Shown: positions 12,593-20,217 of the stretch, piece by piece
How the letters are laid out: each line of letters begins with the position of its first letter
Numbering within the stretch: position 1 is the stretch's first letter
IMG/VR virus record: IMGVR_UViG_3300030119_000590
Span: 13,353-77,352 of that record
Length of the DNA: 64,000 nucleotides
DNA from: a virus
Strand: one strand, 5' to 3'
Position numbers and translations under genes: made by a program
The notes under the pieces: generated by a model
Databases searched by the model: none
What the model saw: only the letters and a program-made list of their open reading frames with translations
What the model was told of the DNA's origin: nothing

Positions 12593-13060
12593 ATGGCACA
12601 ACCACAACCTAAGACAGTATTTGAAAACGAAACAAGTAGAGCATCACTCAAAACAAATCTATTAGATAGATTAGAAAAGTACAACTCCGTATATCGTGAG
12701 TCTGCACCTTCACCAACTGGAAAAGGTGCACCAGGTATTCCAAACTCAGGTCTTAAAAACGAGAGAGTTGCAGGTGACTATTTTGGATATGGTGGTCAAG
12801 TTCGTAAGTTTAACGAGGGTTCAACCGGTATTATACAAAATAGAGGATTTGTGTGCGGAAAGCAGTCAATGGGAAAATCAGACTATGAAGGGACTGAGAA
12901 TGGTAAGTCAACCGCTGCTGACAAAAGCATTTATCGTAACTATATGAAAGCAGATAAGTATGGTGATTCATCTGCAATTAGTGGACTTGCCCAAGGGTTG
13001 AGAACCAACACATCAGCAGGTGCCGGTATGAGAAGAGGTGGTGGGGGTGCTTATTCCTAA
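12593..13060 (+). CDS. Hypothetical Gly-rich protein
   Basis: 155-aa ORF with strong SD (AAGGAG) and an upstream ATATTTAT box. Confidence 0.6.
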   Translation: MAQPQPKTVFENETSRASLKTNLLDRLEKYNSVYRESAPSPTGKGAPGIPNSGLKNERVAGDYFGYGGQVRKFNEGSTGIIQNRGFVCGKQSMGKSDYEGTENGKSTAADKSIYRNYMKADKYGDSSAISGLAQGLRTNTSAGAGMRRGGGGAYS

Positions 13061-13074
13061 ACCTTTTTTCTTTC

Positions 13075-13103
13075 TTGCATTTTTTCCGACATTAGCATAA
13101 CAT
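13075..13103 (+). promoter_or_regulatory. Putative sigma70-type promoter for the resolvase-primase-nuclease operon
   Basis: TTGCAT-17nt-TAACAT just upstream of ATG 13112. Confidence 0.45.
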
Positions 13104-13111
13104 AATAAGTT

Positions 13112-13633
13112 ATGCAAAATAAATCCTATTGTTTAGGATTGGATATAAGTTCAACCGTTGTTGGTTATTGTGTATCTAGTTCAAAAAACGAAATTGTTGA
13201 TGCGGGTTATATTGATATTCATAAATTAACAAGCATTAAAGAAAAAGCACATAAAATTGCTCAGTATCTCGACTCAAGATCTATTGATCCTTCAATTATA
13301 ATAGTTGAGGATTCATTGAGTGGATTTGGTGGAGGGAGAACCAGTCAACAAACCATAGTAAAACTTGCAAAGTGTAATGCAGTTATAAGTTATGTTATTG
13401 AAGCATTGTATGAGGTTGATATAAATCACATTAACGTATCTACTTTAAGAAAAGCAGTTTTCGGTAAAAGTCGTGAAAAAGGTGTAGATAGCAAGACGTT
13501 TGTACGTGAACAACTTAAAAATAAGATTGATTTATCCAAGTTTATTGTCTATAATAGTAGAAATAATTATGATAAAAGGAACTACGATATGTTAGACGCA
13601 ACGGTAGCATCGCTTTATCACTGGTATAAGTAA
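13112..13633 (+). CDS. RuvC-like Holliday junction resolvase
   Basis: LGLDISSTVVG (first catalytic D), IIVED, C-terminal DMLDA; RNase H-fold phage resolvase pattern. Confidence 0.8.
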   Translation: MQNKSYCLGLDISSTVVGYCVSSSKNEIVDAGYIDIHKLTSIKEKAHKIAQYLDSRSIDPSIIIVEDSLSGFGGGRTSQQTIVKLAKCNAVISYVIEALYEVDINHINVSTLRKAVFGKSREKGVDSKTFVREQLKNKIDLSKFIVYNSRNNYDKRNYDMLDATVASLYHWYK

Positions 13634-13635
13634 TT

Positions 13636-14562
13636 GTGGGCATTTCTGAGCAAAAGTTACTGACCTTACTTCAGAAGGTCTTGGGTGAAGGTAAAATCGT
13701 CTCTAAAGACGAAGCAATGTTTATATGCCCATTTTCACACCACCGAAAACCAAAATTGGCTGTGAATCTATCTACGCAGAGGTGGCAGAGTTGGATTGAT
13801 ACAAATGCAAAAGGTCGTAGTATCTTTGCGTTATTCAAGAGGTTACAAGTTCCAAGCAATTACTTTGCCGAGTTATCAAAGATTGTAAAACTTCCGAAAA
13901 GCACTAAGTTGGTAGATGCAGAAGAGAAGTATGTGTCATTACCTTATGAGTTTAAAAGATTGACCGAAACTCACAAAGACTTTTCTTACACACAGGCAAT
14001 AAACTATTTGAAGAATCGTGGAATTAAATCGTATGATATTGAACGATACGACATAGGATATTGCTCTGATGGAGATTATTCAGGTAGAATTATAGTTCCA
14101 TCATATGATCAAGATAATAAATTAAATTATTTTATTGCAAGAGATTTCACAGGAAATGCTTATTTAAAATACAAAAATCCACCGGTCAGTAAAGATGTGG
14201 TGGTGTTTGAGAATCAAATAGATTACTCAGAACCTATTGTATTATGCGAAGGAGTATTCGACGCAATTGCTATACGGCGGAATGCAATTGCTCTTTTAGG
14301 TAAAAACATACCAAGTAAATTAAAAATTAAAATGATTGAAAACAAAGTTTCTGAAGTTTATGTGGTTCTTGACGAAGATGCCATTAAAAATGCAGTAGCA
14401 ATTACAGAAACATTGTTGAATGAGGACATCAAAGTGCGATTCGTTAAAATGGGAAACGAAGATGCCGCCGACGTTGGATTTCGAGGAATGGTGGAAAAAC
14501 TTCGGAATACACCCATAATGGGTTTTGACGCATTGATGAAACAAAAGTTATGCATGAGTTAG
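13636..14562 (+). CDS. DNA primase (TOPRIM), degenerate Zn-binding domain
   Basis: YLKNRGI, GRIIVP, KYKNPP, LCEGVFDAI, LDED TOPRIM motifs; GTG start. Confidence 0.85.
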   Translation: MGISEQKLLTLLQKVLGEGKIVSKDEAMFICPFSHHRKPKLAVNLSTQRWQSWIDTNAKGRSIFALFKRLQVPSNYFAELSKIVKLPKSTKLVDAEEKYVSLPYEFKRLTETHKDFSYTQAINYLKNRGIKSYDIERYDIGYCSDGDYSGRIIVPSYDQDNKLNYFIARDFTGNAYLKYKNPPVSKDVVVFENQIDYSEPIVLCEGVFDAIAIRRNAIALLGKNIPSKLKIKMIENKVSEVYVVLDEDAIKNAVAITETLLNEDIKVRFVKMGNEDAADVGFRGMVEKLRNTPIMGFDALMKQKLCMS

Positions 14563-15254
14563 ACACGAAGATAAAAAAGGTTGAAAAAATTTATCATGTA
14601 TCAGATATTCACCTAAGAAACGTAAAACGTCACAAGGAATACCGAAGTGTATTTGAAAACTTTTACAAACAGCTAAAAGAAGATGCACTTGAAAACGCAA
14701 TAATTTTTATTGGTGGGGATGTTGCTCATGCCAAAACAGAAATGAGTCCTGAACTGGTCGCGGAGATTGCAGATTTCTTTAATAAATGTGCAGAGATACA
14801 CCCAACACTATTGATAGCAGGAAATCATGATTGTAATTTAAATAATCCAGATAGATTAGATGTATTGACTCCAATAGTTGATATGCTTGATAATGATAAT
14901 CTGTTTTATTTAAGGGAAACAGGTGTGTATAAAATTGGTGATGTTGCAATTAGTGTGTTTGGTATATTTGAAGACCCAAGTGAATATATTCGTGGAAAAG
15001 ATATAACCGATAAGTCAATATCAACAAAGATTGCAGTATATCATGGCGCAATCAAACGAAGCAGAACAGACGTGGGTTACGTTATCGTTGGTGGTGATGT
15101 GCCTATGTATATGTTTGACGGATACGATATGGTAATGCTTGGGGATATTCACAAGCATCAAATTTTACAAGAATATCATACTGAGGCATTGTTTGTACCT
15201 GAATCAAAAACAGATGAATATGTTCTTGATGGGTGGGAGGTCTGCGATGACTAA
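14550..15254 (+). CDS. Mre11/SbcD-like metallophosphoesterase, N-terminal fragment
   Basis: SDIH, GGDVAH, AGNHD, YHG and LGDIHKHQ motifs. The final YSGS..Q..GE segment is absent here and is found at the start of ORF 16172. Confidence 0.85.
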   Translation: MHELDTKIKKVEKIYHVSDIHLRNVKRHKEYRSVFENFYKQLKEDALENAIIFIGGDVAHAKTEMSPELVAEIADFFNKCAEIHPTLLIAGNHDCNLNNPDRLDVLTPIVDMLDNDNLFYLRETGVYKIGDVAISVFGIFEDPSEYIRGKDITDKSISTKIAVYHGAIKRSRTDVGYVIVGGDVPMYMFDGYDMVMLGDIHKHQILQEYHTEALFVPESKTDEYVLDGWEVCDD

Positions 15255-16182
15255 TATCTTAATAAAGTGCAGAAATATTCACATAGGTGATGTGATTTTT
15301 TCAAGTAGTGTCGCAAAGAAACTGAAAGAAAAGAATCCAAATTGCATTGTTCACTATGACATCAATTATTTGCAACCTATGGAACTTCTTAATAATAACC
15401 CATATATTGATGGAGTTTATTACAAAGAATCGGCAAATATAGATTATGATGTGGTGTATCAATTGATGAACGATGATGTATCTACATTAAGTCCATATGA
15501 ATCTGCGGTTGCTCAATTTCAACGAATGTGTGGAATTGAAGATTACGATGATACCTTCGAAGTTTTTACAAATCCTCAACTTGATTATTCTATAAAAAGA
15601 AGTATGGATGAACTGGTTAGCATAGGTGATTGGGATGATGACTTGGTAAAAATAGGATACCAAGTTGATTGGGATAGAAAAAGTTTTTTGTTCACGGAAG
15701 AAGAATATGAAAGAGCAGAGGATGGTGAAGACGGAACAGGATACGGAAGTGGAAAACGAAATGTATTTGATATAATCAATTGTATGGAAGTTTCTTCAAA
15801 GGTTATGTTGTTCGCACTTGGTCTTGAAGATAAGATTTCAAAGAACTATCCGTGTTTAAATTCAACCAGCAAATTTTCGTTTACCGCAAGTTTAATGAAG
15901 AATTGTGATTATGTTATTGGGGGTGAAGGGTGTCTTACCAATGTATCATCTGCACTGGGAACTAAAACGATAATTACGACTGATTATGTTTATCAAATGT
16001 TTGGTCCAAAAGGAATTCGTTGGCAACAAGAGGGTGGTGATTTAAACAACTTGGAAACTCGCAGACCATTCCTAGGTCCCAATGCGTACTTTCCAAAAGG
16101 AGGCCACATAGAACTAAACCCGTTTTTAACAGACCTCCAAGTTGGAGAAGAAATTTTAAGAATAGCACTTGATGGAAATTAA
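15247..16182 (+). CDS. GT9-like (ADP-heptose:LPS heptosyltransferase family) glycosyltransferase
   Basis: HIGDVIFSSSVAKKLK...ELLNNNPYIDGV and CDYVIGGEGCLTNVSSALGTKTI match the GT9 pattern. Likely start is ATG 15247 with GGGAGG SD (track start 15139). Confidence 0.7.
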   Translation: MTNILIKCRNIHIGDVIFSSSVAKKLKEKNPNCIVHYDINYLQPMELLNNNPYIDGVYYKESANIDYDVVYQLMNDDVSTLSPYESAVAQFQRMCGIEDYDDTFEVFTNPQLDYSIKRSMDELVSIGDWDDDLVKIGYQVDWDRKSFLFTEEEYERAEDGEDGTGYGSGKRNVFDIINCMEVSSKVMLFALGLEDKISKNYPCLNSTSKFSFTASLMKNCDYVIGGEGCLTNVSSALGTKTIITTDYVYQMFGPKGIRWQQEGGDLNNLETRRPFLGPNAYFPKGGHIELNPFLTDLQVGEEILRIALDGN

Positions 16183-18778
16183 AGAAAAATATGTAAAAAT
16201 AAGAAGACTCAATCCTAGTAAACCTGTGGTAGTTTATTCGGGTAGTATGATTCAACAAAATCACGGAGAACTTCCACGTGGTCATGGATATGTATTGTGG
16301 GATGTAAAAGAACGTAAACCAAACCATGTTGAAGTTAATAATGATTATGGTTATTACACAATAACAGTTCGTGACGGAACGTGTGTAAGTGATTTAACTT
16401 TGTTGCCAAAGAAGGCAAGGTTACGAGTAAAGGTTTTTAATACAACTGCCGCCGAGACCAAAGAGATACTTGCAGATATACGAAAGCATACAAGTATCAC
16501 AGACTTGAATGTTACACGATGTGATGCAATATCAGAGGCAAAGAAGTTTGATAGAGACAGTAAGTTTAATTTTGGTGATGTAACTCAAACATCCGTACAG
16601 AATGATTTAATAGAAGATTATCTTACTCGTAATTTTGTTGTAGATGAAGAGCAAATAAAAACTGCTCTTGATATCAATAAAGAGGTCAACGGAAAACTTG
16701 CAATCAAAGAAACTCTTCGTAATTGTATTTGGAAACCCAAGACATTTGAGTTCGGTAATATGTTCAGTTATGGAGACGGAAACATCATTGACTTCTCTAA
16801 AATGAAAAGTGTCATGGGATTGTTTGCCTCAAATGCATCCGGTAAAAGTTCTATTATGAGTGCTTTGAGTTTTTGTTTGTTTGATAAATGTGACAGAGCA
16901 TTTAAGGCATCTCATGTACTTAATACAACTTGCTCTGATTTCAAATGCAAACTGAACTTTGAAATTGAGGGAGTTGATTATTTTATTGAACGGGTTGCAA
17001 CGACTAAAAAGAACGGAGATGTTACGGTATCAGTTGAGTTTTGGAAAGTAGACGAAAATGGAAATACTCTTTCTTTGAATGGAGAAATGCGTTCAGGAAC
17101 CAATGCAATTATCCGTGATCATGTAGGTTCGTATGATGACTTTGTTCTTACTACACTTAGTTTACAGAACAACAATTCCATTTTTATAGATAAAAGTCAA
17201 AGTGAACGAAAAGACCTTCTTGCACAATTCATGGGAATTGATATTTTTGATAGATTGCACTCAACTGCATCTGAAGACATCAAAGAAGTTAACGCATTGC
17301 TCAAACGATTCAACCGAGAGGATTTTAGTGAGATTCTCGCAGACAACCAAAAGAATTTGGACAATAAAGAATCAGAGTATAATGCTCAACAGAAATTAAC
17401 TGAAGGTTTTGTTACAAAACAACGAACTCTGAATGAGAAACTTGTTAAGATAAATTCCGAGTATAAAACGTGTTCAACCGAAGAACAAGATTTGGATTTG
17501 GATGAACTTGAGTTTGAGCAGAAAAATCTACAGGAACGGTTGAATACTGCAAAATCTACAAGAGACAACACTTCCAAGGAAAAGCAACAATTAACATCTA
17601 AACGAAAAGACCGTAAGAACTTGGTTACCACACATGAAAAGAATGAAGTAGAGTCTGAACGAGAACGAGTAGAGGAATTGCAGAAGAAACTCGTAGTGGT
17701 AGACAAAGACCTTGCTGTTTTAAGAACATCTGTAAACGCAAAACTAGATAAGTTAAAGCATTTCAAAGACCATGAATATGATCCTGAGTGTGAGTATTGT
17801 GTGAAGAATGCAAAAAATATTATAGAATCAAAAGACGAAACACGTAAAGCACTAGACAAAGATAAAGGAGAAGCAAACAAGTTGGTGGAACTTAGAAACG
17901 AATATACCGAGAAACTAGGTGATGCGGATAAAATAGAAACTCAATATAGAGAACTTAGGGATGCAAGGAATGACGTTAGACAATTGTCTTCTGAGATAAA
18001 TGAAAAGGATAGTAAGATACTTGCATTGTCTTCTATGATAGAGTCGTTGGAAAAGGATATAAAAATAAATGCCGATAAGATTGTTATGTACCACGAATGT
18101 CGTGATACCATATTGTTCAATAAAGAACTTAAAAAGTCTGCGTCTTTGATCAAAGACGAATTAAAAGTAGTTGATTCTGATGTTGAACGAGAAACTGCTA
18201 AGTCTCAAGTTCTGTTTGGTGAAGTAAAGGTGTTTGAAAAAGAACACGATGATATTCTGAAATCCATTGAAGAGGCAAAGGGATTTGAACGAAAGAAACG
18301 TGGTTATGAATTATACTTGGATGCGGTTAAACGAGATGGTATTCCGTATGAACTGATTTCCCAAACAATTCCGAGTATTGAAAGTGAAGTGAATAATATT
18401 CTATCACAAATCGTTGATTTTACTATGCAACTTGAAATGGATGGAAAGCACATTTACTCTAAGATTGTATACGAAGATAGACATTGGCCACTTGAAATGT
18501 GTAGTGGAATGGAGCGATTCATTAGCAGTATTGCTATGCGAGTTGCACTCATAAACGTATCAAGTCTACCAAGGTCTAATTTCTTGGCGATTGATGAAGG
18601 TTGGGGTTCGTTGGATGGAGACAATATTAATAGTGTATTTAATCTATTTACGTATCTAAAAGGTCAGTTTGAGTTTATTCTTGTAATTAGTCACCTTGAC
18701 ATTATGCGTGATATGGTTGACGAGATTATAGAAATTCAATCTAAAGATGGTTGTAGTCGGATAAAATATGGGGTATAA
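16172..18778 (+). CDS. Mre11 C-terminal part fused to Rad50/SbcC (gp46-like) SMC ATPase
   Basis: N-terminal YSGSMIQQNHGE..HGYVLWD; Walker A NASGKSS; zinc hook CEYC; signature CSGMERF; Walker B IDEGWGSLD; coiled coil. Confidence 0.9.
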   Translation: MEIKEKYVKIRRLNPSKPVVVYSGSMIQQNHGELPRGHGYVLWDVKERKPNHVEVNNDYGYYTITVRDGTCVSDLTLLPKKARLRVKVFNTTAAETKEILADIRKHTSITDLNVTRCDAISEAKKFDRDSKFNFGDVTQTSVQNDLIEDYLTRNFVVDEEQIKTALDINKEVNGKLAIKETLRNCIWKPKTFEFGNMFSYGDGNIIDFSKMKSVMGLFASNASGKSSIMSALSFCLFDKCDRAFKASHVLNTTCSDFKCKLNFEIEGVDYFIERVATTKKNGDVTVSVEFWKVDENGNTLSLNGEMRSGTNAIIRDHVGSYDDFVLTTLSLQNNNSIFIDKSQSERKDLLAQFMGIDIFDRLHSTASEDIKEVNALLKRFNREDFSEILADNQKNLDNKESEYNAQQKLTEGFVTKQRTLNEKLVKINSEYKTCSTEEQDLDLDELEFEQKNLQERLNTAKSTRDNTSKEKQQLTSKRKDRKNLVTTHEKNEVESERERVEELQKKLVVVDKDLAVLRTSVNAKLDKLKHFKDHEYDPECEYCVKNAKNIIESKDETRKALDKDKGEANKLVELRNEYTEKLGDADKIETQYRELRDARNDVRQLSSEINEKDSKILALSSMIESLEKDIKINADKIVMYHECRDTILFNKELKKSASLIKDELKVVDSDVERETAKSQVLFGEVKVFEKEHDDILKSIEEAKGFERKKRGYELYLDAVKRDGIPYELISQTIPSIESEVNNILSQIVDFTMQLEMDGKHIYSKIVYEDRHWPLEMCSGMERFISSIAMRVALINVSSLPRSNFLAIDEGWGSLDGDNINSVFNLFTYLKGQFEFILVISHLDIMRDMVDEIIEIQSKDGCSRIKYGV

Positions 18779-18823
18779 ACATATTTAGATATATATTTAT
18801 TGTATCTAAGGATGTTTGTATCT

Positions 18824-19867
18824 ATGGAAAATTCCGACAAAAAACAAGAACTTGAAGAAACACTAATTCAGGCCGGTCTTCGTAAGGGGTATTTTACTCT
18901 TGTTGAAGGTGTATATGATCCTGGTATTTTAAAGGCAGTATTTCTTGCTGGAGGTCCTGGTTCTGGTAAATCGGCAGTAATAGATACCGTGTTTAATGTT
19001 GCTCCTGAATCAAAGTCTTTGTCATCCTCTGGATTAAAAATCGTGAATAGTGATAGTTCATTTGAACATTTACTCAAGAAAGCAGGTCATAGTTTGGACT
19101 TGGGTTCGTTGGATGACGAGGTGTTTAATCAAATTACAAGCAGTGACCCAAACTCAATTCGTTCCAAAGCAAAGCAAATAATGTTACAACAATTTTCTCA
19201 TTACAAAAACGGAAGACTTGGTGTTATTATTGACGGAACGGGTGATGATTATGCCAAAATATCCAAGCAAAAGAAAGAGTTAGAAAAACTTGGTTATGAT
19301 TGCTATATGGTGTTTGTTAATACTTCACTTGAAGTTGCTCAAGAAAGAAACGCATTTCGTGCAAGAAAACTTCCAAAAAAACTAGTGAAAGCAGTTTGGA
19401 CTGATGTGCAAAAAAACATGGGTAGATTTCAAAGTTCATTCAAACAAAACTTTACCATCATAGATAACTCAGAAGATTTAAGAAGTAAAACGAAACCAGG
19501 AAAACTTGATCTTGCTCCTTTTATATTAAAAGCAACCGCAAAGTTTATTGCAAAACCAATTCGTAATCCAATTGGAAAAGAGTGGATTAAGTTGATGATG
19601 AAGCACGACAATATGTCAAAGAGTGGAGATCTCAAGAGTCGCATGAACGAAGACCTTGATATGGAGTTAATGGAAGATGTAGTGCTTCCAATGGACTTGG
19701 AACGACATTTAAGTCGTTCTATTTATGTAATCAATAAGTTTAATTTAAATGAACGAAGAAATCTTGCAGTCCTTGCTCGTATAGTTGATAGTTTACAATT
19801 AAATAAAAACCAACTCAACAAATACTTCCACCAAATTAGAACTTTAAAATTCAAAGGAGAGCAATAG
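18824..19867 (+). CDS. P-loop kinase (zeta-toxin/AAA_33-like)
   Basis: AVFLAGGPGSGKS, VNSD, IIDGTG, FVNTSLEVAQERN motifs; start uncertain (18800-18824). Confidence 0.75.
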   Translation: MENSDKKQELEETLIQAGLRKGYFTLVEGVYDPGILKAVFLAGGPGSGKSAVIDTVFNVAPESKSLSSSGLKIVNSDSSFEHLLKKAGHSLDLGSLDDEVFNQITSSDPNSIRSKAKQIMLQQFSHYKNGRLGVIIDGTGDDYAKISKQKKELEKLGYDCYMVFVNTSLEVAQERNAFRARKLPKKLVKAVWTDVQKNMGRFQSSFKQNFTIIDNSEDLRSKTKPGKLDLAPFILKATAKFIAKPIRNPIGKEWIKLMMKHDNMSKSGDLKSRMNEDLDMELMEDVVLPMDLERHLSRSIYVINKFNLNERRNLAVLARIVDSLQLNKNQLNKYFHQIRTLKFKGEQ

Positions 19868-20217
19868 TGTTCGACAAAATTATAGATGAGTTGATTGCGG
19901 AAGACAAGTTAGGAGAAACTTGGAAACTTGAAATGGCTCCAAATCATGCACGATATAGTTTTTCGTCATCGAAATCAGGAAATGAAAATTGGGCAAAAAA
20001 GTTGGCAAATAAACTTGTTCAAAAAGAAAAAGAAGATTTTAAATTTATAGGAATTTATAGTGAAGGAGAATCAGCAGAGGGACCAATTGTTGATGGATTT
20101 ATTTTTCATTGCACACAGGAATATCTTGATAAAGCACCACACATGCACCGTGATAAAAGAAAGGCCTGTAAACGACATCTTAAAACTGGTAAAGTAGAAG
20201 AATATTTGGAGGATTGA
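19867..20217 (+). CDS. Hypothetical protein
   Basis: GTG start overlapping the upstream stop, with AGGAG SD. Confidence 0.55.
   Translation: MFDKIIDELIAEDKLGETWKLEMAPNHARYSFSSSKSGNENWAKKLANKLVQKEKEDFKFIGIYSEGESAEGPIVDGFIFHCTQEYLDKAPHMHRDKRKACKRHLKTGKVEEYLED

Follow-up and report, generated by a model that had tools for sequence, protein, structure and literature searches.

How does a virus keep an Mre11-Rad50 machine when the nuclease gene is interrupted by a complete gene for an unrelated enzyme? The question is raised by a locus in a stretch of 64,000 nucleotides (the window), which corresponds to positions 13353-77352 of the 77-kb IMG/VR record IMGVR_UViG_3300030119_000590; the source is an uncultured marine myovirus, the record is ~39% complete according to CheckV, and all positions given below are in window numbering unless a locus is named. 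Three plus-strand open reading frames (ORFs) follow a primase-like gene, as a first-pass annotation made from the letters alone had placed them, and there is no non-coding DNA between them. ORF A encodes the N-terminal part of an SbcD/Mre11 nuclease, ORF C encodes the rest of this nuclease fused to a Rad50/SbcC ATPase, and ORF B, which lies between the two, encodes a protein resembling glycosyltransferases of family GT9. The answer favoured here, and considered probable, is that this is a gene in pieces: the products of A and C would reassemble non-covalently, the split would have been made by an endonuclease gene that was later replaced by the GT9-like gene, and splicing would play no part. 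The features that bear on this answer are as follows.

14550-15254, plus strand: ORF A, N-terminal SbcD/Mre11 fragment of 234 amino acids (PF00149 and phrog_100 matches)
15171-15251, plus strand: acidic tail of A, residues E208-D234, beta1-alpha-beta2 of a mini-domain (homologous tails in relatives)
15231-15240, plus strand: GGGTGGGAGG, a Shine-Dalgarno-like stretch (GGGAGG) 6 nucleotides upstream of the ATG of B (read from the sequence, putative function)
15247-16182, plus strand: ORF B, GT-B fold, GT9-like, 311 amino acids from a conserved ATG (AlphaFold2 model and Foldseek)
16172-18778, plus strand: ORF C, 868 amino acids, ATG at 16172 (phrog_100 and phrog_77 matches)
16172-16225, plus strand: basic head of C, residues M1-P18, strand beta3 of the mini-domain and a linker
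16226-16636, plus strand: remaining SbcD/Mre11 fold, with the last core strands (VVVYSGS, HGYVLWD) and the capping region (phrog_100 positions 224-350; alignment to uninterrupted fusions)
16637-18778, plus strand: Rad50/SbcC ATPase with coiled coil (phrog_77 match; motifs in the translation)

ORF A matches the Pfam Metallophos family PF00149 (E 9.9e-9; score 36.3 bits, cutoff 21.5) and accounts for positions 18-222 of phrog_100, the PHROG profile for SbcD (E 1.7e-15). A profile of A finds T. maritima SbcD and P. furiosus Mre11 in the PDB, both at E ~1e-3. The metal-binding motifs I-V are all present in A (D19-x-H21, G56-D57, G91-N-H-D94, H165 and G198-D-I-H201), their residues are invariant across 20 clade sequences, and the protein ends with ...GDIHKHQILQEY...VLDGWEVCDD before the stop codon. 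Residues 18-150 of ORF C take up phrog_100 at position 224 and follow it to position 350, which places the cut in the profile between positions 222 and 224; the nuclease is severed cleanly, directly after motif V (GDIHKHQ). Residues 156-866 of C match the SbcC profile phrog_77 (E 1.1e-46) and contain the Walker A motif GLFASNASGKSS (GKSS), the CxxC zinc hook CEYC within a coiled coil, the signature SGMERF, the Walker B motif FLAIDEG and the H-loop ISHLD, which together are the features of a Rad50/SbcC-type SMC-like ABC ATPase; the model of an unsplit relative (P0126) also matches Rad50/SbcC chains, with E values down to 2e-21. The first-pass annotation had read A as carrying the nuclease motifs up to GDIHKHQ and C as the remaining SbcD segment joined to the SbcC ATPase, and both the coordinates and the two profile ranges agree with this. 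The complete core fold with its capping domain is thus found on neither polypeptide, but is shared between A and the head of C, and in the predicted model the fold is whole only as an A:C heterodimer. An Mre11 nuclease activity is proposed for A and C together.

Relatives were collected from two IMG/VR scans, a GenBank phage set and a search of 1.84 billion protein representatives. SbcD-SbcC is usually one uninterrupted chain of ~1040-1070 amino acids, both in more than 120 fetched loci and in most of the best 150 representatives at 50% identity, which bears out the earlier suggestion that an ancestral SbcD-SbcC fusion came apart within a surface element. Such fusions, for example those of Mel-JY01 and of locus L037, can be aligned end-to-end with A and the head of C, and the break could be mapped by this alignment, as the first-pass annotation had proposed. 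Microcystis phage Mel-JY01 (WWT39521, 1066 amino acids, annotated 'AAA domain containing protein') shows homology over its full length and has the same primase-like upstream neighbour. Unlike the window, fusions of the Mel-JY01 type consist of one chain, in which the loop is short (GDIHKMQYMDTERRLAYPGS) and the mini-domain described below is missing; the loop after motif V is short in unsplit forms generally, as in L037 (GDIHKRQILQEYDPQNGKPIVSYCGS).

The break itself is furnished with extra peptide. The tail of A (~27 residues) is not present in the short-loop intact homologues, while homologous tails of equal length, with the 22-residue EY-to-GW spacing kept, are found in five other split loci (L001, L036, L073, L084 and L085), and the head of C is conserved within the clade that shares the A-B-C layout. 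The net charge of the tail segment is -8 and that of C residues 1-21 is +4 in the window, with clade means of -4.3 and +2.1. In four unsplit relatives of 1085-1099 amino acids (P0126, P0164, P0173 and P0177), tail and head form one continuous insert of ~45 residues. The AlphaFold2 model of P0126, with a predicted local distance difference test score (pLDDT) of 80-88 in this region, has a strand at residues 216-222, a helix at 223-231, a strand at 235-240, a two-residue turn and a further strand at 243-249. The tail matches the strand-helix-strand of residues 216-240, the head corresponds to residues 243-254, and the stop of A and the start of C in the window, when aligned to P0126, both fall at the hairpin turn of this beta-alpha-beta-beta mini-domain. 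Among IMG/VR relatives of P0126 only short-loop forms, 34-40% identical, were found, and the head of C has no meaningful match to the PDB by sequence. Two breakpoint marks claimed by the first-pass annotation did not survive this comparison. The supposedly duplicated WEV and MEI residues are neighbouring beta-hairpin strands of a mini-domain that is continuous in unsplit relatives. The 8-mer CTTGATGG, taken as a junction signature, does lie at 15225 and 16168, but it occurs eight times in the window, always on the plus strand (1.7 expected), and the protein segments that it encodes vary at both junctions across relatives; a direct repeat or target-site duplication was rejected, the 8-mer being a common Leu-Asp-Gly coding word that is not specific to the junctions.

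ORF B fills the gap exactly, in a reading frame that differs from that of its neighbours, and overlaps A by 8 nucleotides (ATGACTAA) and C by 11 nucleotides. The first-pass annotation had described a glycosyltransferase gene of this kind, overlapping both neighbours, and this holds, with the GT9 likeness lying in the fold. No match to B was found in Pfam or PHROG, and PF01075 (GT9) is absent even at E up to 10. An AlphaFold2 model built with 20 clade sequences as input (pLDDT 79.8, predicted template modelling score 0.81) has the GT-B fold, and Foldseek ranks 1-9 in the PDB are all GT9 chains (E 3.6e-10 to 1.3e-6, template modelling score 0.51-0.59), behind which stand four GT9 entries: 3tov (E 3.6e-10), WaaF 1psw, WaaC 2h1f/2h1h/2gt1 and WaaC 6dfe. 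By sequence, a profile of B finds only 3tov in the PDB, at E 0.27, and the invariant G14-D15 of B aligns to the LGD of 3tov. B shares with the GT9 heptosyltransferases (3tov, WaaF 1psw, WaaC 2h1f) the two-Rossmann GT-B fold, the equivalent N-terminal G-D and a C-terminal IG-x-E-G...ALG; unlike them, it is a phage gene among DNA-metabolism genes and is only 8-13% identical to them. Thus B falls outside GT9 by sequence profile, whereas its GT-B fold has GT9 structures as nearest neighbours and keeps the N-terminal G-D, and 'GT9-like glycosyltransferase' is a fair name at the level of the modelled fold; transferase activity is predicted. Homologues of B in a large protein collection number 138, none with a Pfam domain. 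A second homologue group at ~39% identity includes P0086, encoded in locus L162 (L162:1581-9926) within a phage glycan-synthesis cluster that holds GT1-like, GT2-like, FabH-like, hexapeptide acetyltransferase and other sugar-modifying enzyme genes, and there the gene is not adjacent to a nuclease gene. A search for unsplit SbcCD in phages with the 39%-identical glycosyltransferase gave 0 matches in three records, each of which is a fragment only 16-41% complete. The Shine-Dalgarno-like stretch ahead of B coincides with the codons for Gly-Trp-Glu, invariant residues in the tail of A, and positions 15231-15240 may therefore be doubly constrained, as peptide and as putative ribosome-binding site.

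The layout is not peculiar to one virus. A-B-C occurs in 32 IMG/VR loci, with A 66-97% identical to that of the window, and these loci are monophyletic with a support of 100. The A/B overlap is 8 nucleotides in all of them, the B/C overlap is 8-14 nucleotides, mostly 11, and both nuclease fragments are intact in 32 of 32. B is 49-89% identical to that of the window, a divergence that makes the arrangement an old one. The ratio of nonsynonymous to synonymous substitution rates (dN/dS) within the clade is 0.060 in the 140 codons of C that follow its head, 0.084 in the core of A, and higher in the tail (0.135) and in the head itself (0.165); such low values indicate that all parts, the extra peptides included, are translated and constrained. 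As a separate observation, identity of B to the window does not follow that of A and C across loci L004-L035: L027-L031 have A at 66-68% and B at 79-81%, while L012-L014 have A at 70-71% and B at 50-51%. B also comes in two size classes within the clade, of 291-299 and 304-313 amino acids, and together these features of the sequences suggest that B alleles have been exchanged by recombination within the slot.

Outside this clade the same site has other occupants. In L001, a 484-kb phage genome, the slot holds a 305-amino-acid ORF with CxxC fingers and a TnsA-like PD-(D/E)XK domain (PF08722, E 5.8e-6), and in L036 and L073 the slot ORFs begin with Zn-finger/NUMOD-like modules before being cut by the contig ends. 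In L085 (6694-7010) there is a 314-nucleotide remnant, the last third of a Vsr-like endonuclease (...IEIDGDYWH...SDWKLIRIWASD...), and in L084 (6694-6800) a 79-nucleotide remnant that keeps ~13 codons of one; the nuclease gene is still split in both, and the split therefore outlives the endonuclease. L087 (6600-6700) and L088 are unsplit, with a loop (...TLQEYSCEELVVNESKLTTKKIKHIKPAIKYSGS) in which the first half of the tail is joined in frame to the head, a scar that looks like a deletion re-fusing a formerly split gene. Tail-bearing N-fragments are present in at least six more clusters at 50% identity. The split state is scattered over the tree, where six changes or more are needed to explain it, and the approximately unbiased (AU) test rejects a single clade of all split forms (p-AU 7e-6). 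A homing element with co-converted flanks, followed by decay or loss, would produce such a scattered pattern.

Motif III is the site of a different kind of insertion in related genes. The N-fragment P0130 (551 amino acids) carries a LAGLIDADG-type intein of ~320 residues at this motif (GNHD/C...VAGN/CNLNN), with a split-type tail still at its end, and for P0186 and P0259 the match coordinates, which are all that the observation draws on, imply a similar insertion of ~310 residues at the same place. With an intein at motif III and a break after motif V, the gene has been a target of selfish elements of two kinds, each at a conserved motif of its own. In the window the coding stretch for GNHDCNLNN (14812-14846) is so conserved that marine metagenome contigs of many other organisms pile up on it, giving a depth spike and spurious 'joints'; two such 'joints' at 14845 were rejected as deletions, since they have 23-nucleotide sides and arise from foreign contigs stacking on the conserved GNHD stretch.

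Genes fractured in a comparable manner have been described. Dassa, London, Stoddard and Pietrokovski (2009, Nucleic Acids Research 37:2560; PMC2677866) reported one intein-less locus from the Lake Gatun Global Ocean Sampling data, where a gene for a Vsr-like endonuclease interrupts an SbcD-like gene. Intact homologues have neither the tail of 25 residues nor the head of 9 residues seen at this break; the 3' end of the endonuclease gene overlaps the downstream ORF, and overlaps with downstream starts in that study are 6-69 bp. The window resembles this locus in having SbcD-type N- and C-ORFs that are adjacent and encode consecutive halves, extra peptides at the break, an overlap with the downstream start and no intein. 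It differs in that the slot holds a GT9-like gene instead of an endonuclease gene and in that this state is fixed in a whole clade. Five loci are of the 2009 type, namely L001, L036 and L073, in which a free-standing endonuclease gene lies between the halves, and L084 and L085, in which remnants do; the window has no such gene. The 2009 account concerned a single locus, without unsplit mini-domain forms, a decay series or re-fused scars. In Aeromonas phage Aeh1, nrdA is split by mobE, and the tails are essential for activity and assembly, with no splicing (Crona et al. 2010, Nucleic Acids Research 39:1381; PMC3045599). As is proposed for the window, this is an essential phage gene fragmented by a free-standing endonuclease gene, with C- and N-terminal tails at the insertion; unlike the window, it encodes a ribonucleotide reductase, the endonuclease is of the HNH type, and the function of the tails is experimental there and modelled here. 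The fractured genes for gp41, NrdJ, IMPDH and DnaE combine split inteins of ~130 residues with a free-standing endonuclease (PMC2677866). They share with the window the order of N-half, inserted ORF and C-half and an origin in marine phage-like DNA, but they rely on trans-splicing, whereas the tail and head of the window are without intein blocks. No description of a glycosyltransferase in the SbcD fracture slot was found in a literature search. What is new is that a glycosyltransferase occupies the slot; the split-gene phenomenon itself was already known in 2009 and 2010.

Whether the two halves can find each other was addressed by complex prediction of A with C(1-175), using a 20-row alignment for each partner. 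The interaction score ipSAE was 0.89 against 0.01 for the best control, where the mark applied admits 58 of 80 solved complexes, along with 2 of 110 mismatched pairs; contact agreement between runs was at least 98% and partner pLDDT at least 73. The modelled sheets join two strands of C (19-22 and 40-45) to two of A (195-197 and 13-16), and the interface includes the A tail (205-234) touching the C head (5-27). The model supports A:C binding and, with both pieces being conserved, supports the non-covalent reassembly that the first-pass annotation had supposed.

The course of events can be proposed as follows. A single-chain SbcD-SbcC ancestor of ~1050 amino acids would have been cut after motif V, in the hairpin turn of the ~45-residue mini-domain, when a free-standing homing endonuclease gene invaded the site. 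In the ancestor of the A-B-C clade the endonuclease gene would have been replaced by a GT9-like gene of the kind found in phage glycan-synthesis clusters, which has since presumably been inherited as a resident. A, B and C are most likely co-transcribed and translationally coupled, as their tight overlaps suggest. A keeps all metal ligands and ends in the acidic beta-alpha-beta tail, while C begins with the basic last strand and supplies what the fold still lacks, namely the other core strands and the capping region, together with the Rad50 ATPase. The two would then reassemble into a working nuclease-ATPase, with the intermolecular sheet of tail and head in the small beta-alpha-beta-beta element as the likely clasp, and neither RNA nor protein splicing would be involved.

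Several points weigh against this account. The replacement of an endonuclease gene is inferred only from the homology of tail and head and from the shared site, and no endonuclease trace was found in the 32 loci of the glycosyltransferase clade. The mini-domain is either older than the split or travels with the cassette. The split group for the AU test was named only after the tree had been inspected. Mre11 is a solved single-chain fold, so that the complex model may pass through likeness to, or memory of, solved Mre11 structures. Finally, B has no sequence-level match to the GT9 Pfam family.

The first of these points leads to the foremost alternative, which is considered unlikely: that the split was caused by the arrival of the glycosyltransferase gene itself in an SbcD-SbcC gene that was intact and already had the mini-domain, with no endonuclease stage in this lineage. 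The lack of endonuclease remnants in all 32 loci speaks for it, as does the exact fit of B to the slot, and the existence of unsplit mini-domain alleles means that tail and head need not stem from a cassette. Yet the same hairpin turn is broken in at least five other lineages with endonuclease genes or remnants, a plain enzyme gene has no known means of targeting that exact site, and overlap of the 3' end of the inserted ORF with the downstream start is a reported trait of endonuclease-fractured genes (PMC2677866). The first-pass annotation had cast the glycosyltransferase gene as the breaker of the nuclease gene; with the same site and homologous tails and heads occurring elsewhere together with homing endonuclease genes or their remnants, it probably was not.

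Rather less likely still is a reading in which the fracture site has been domesticated as an expression slot, with B and the Mre11-Rad50 nuclease coupled in translation because the two act together. If this were true, B could, for example, be a DNA-modifying glycosyltransferase that marks phage DNA so that phage or host nucleases spare it; the alpha- and beta-glucosyltransferases of T4 are GT-B enzymes. An endonuclease-split gene might, on the same premise, become a stable landing pad at which cargo genes are captured and exchanged between phages.

It is very improbable that one fragment is a decaying remnant and that only the other, or neither, is functional. A by itself does hold every catalytic metal ligand and spans almost the full Pfam Metallophos model, but A and C have both been kept intact throughout the clade, with dN/dS of 0.06-0.17, and the model shows strands of the C head completing the core sheets of A. 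Restoration of a contiguous protein by group I/II intron splicing, split-intein trans-splicing or ribosomal bypassing has a slighter chance again. Introns and inteins are frequent in phage DNA-metabolism genes, and a LAGLIDADG intein is present in related N-fragments such as P0130, although its site there is motif III. In the window, no Rfam family was found in 14000-17000 at E up to 1, and a group I/II intron was rejected on this result and on the lack of any non-coding stretch between the ORFs; what has been inserted is itself a conserved ORF, which uses a different frame and extends into the genes on either side. A split intein was rejected as well. The tail starts with EYHTE... and the head ends with ...RRLN/PSK (RHN and a variable residue in relatives), neither a Cys or Ser opening the tail nor a conserved nucleophile following the head is present, and tail (~27 residues) and head (~18 residues) amount to ~45 residues against ~130 or more, far too short for an intein. 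Both are under purifying selection as peptides, and the 920-nucleotide gap far exceeds the known 50-nucleotide bypass. The first-pass annotation, too, had seen no hallmarks of an intron or intein. Misassembly, for which that annotation had recommended a check, is refuted: the window is a metagenomic contig, but the layout recurs in 32 independent IMG/VR contigs, and marine metagenome contigs from three further studies bridge both junctions, one of them, of 1821 nucleotides and 97% identical, covering both.

The gene directly upstream of the three is the following.

13636-14562, plus strand: DnaG/Toprim primase-like gene (Pfam DNAG_N and Toprim matches), with its 3' end overlapping the start of ORF A

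A primase-like ORF also precedes SbcD in L001, L002, L084 and L085, and is thus a neighbour common to split and unsplit relatives. Directly downstream of the Rad50 part, at 18800-19867, lies a gene for a 355-amino-acid P-loop kinase (Zeta-toxin / AAA_33 Pfam matches), and terminase, portal, major head and sheath genes are present further downstream. A megablast of 13000-20000 against GenBank phages gave 0 matches, and among the sequencing runs listed for this DNA there was no RNA run. Within the three-gene block, a promoter and terminator scan found no intrinsic terminator and no promoter signal above the shuffled expectation.

For annotation, the locus is a case in which pipelines would report the products separately, as a short "metallophosphoesterase", an "AAA/SbcC" protein and, between them, a hypothetical protein, and would overlook that a single Mre11-Rad50 machine is involved. 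The pairing of tail and head might also serve as a natural split-protein tag. With the loci assembled here, a single published locus is extended to an evolutionary series at one site of one gene, which runs from the intact gene through the endonuclease-invaded and split gene, decay of the endonuclease and scarred re-fusion to re-use of the slot by an unrelated enzyme gene that has been kept across a deep phage clade. This series is a natural experiment on how far essential multi-domain enzymes tolerate fragmentation, and it suggests that a gene, once fractured, can turn into a lasting site for the gain of new ones.

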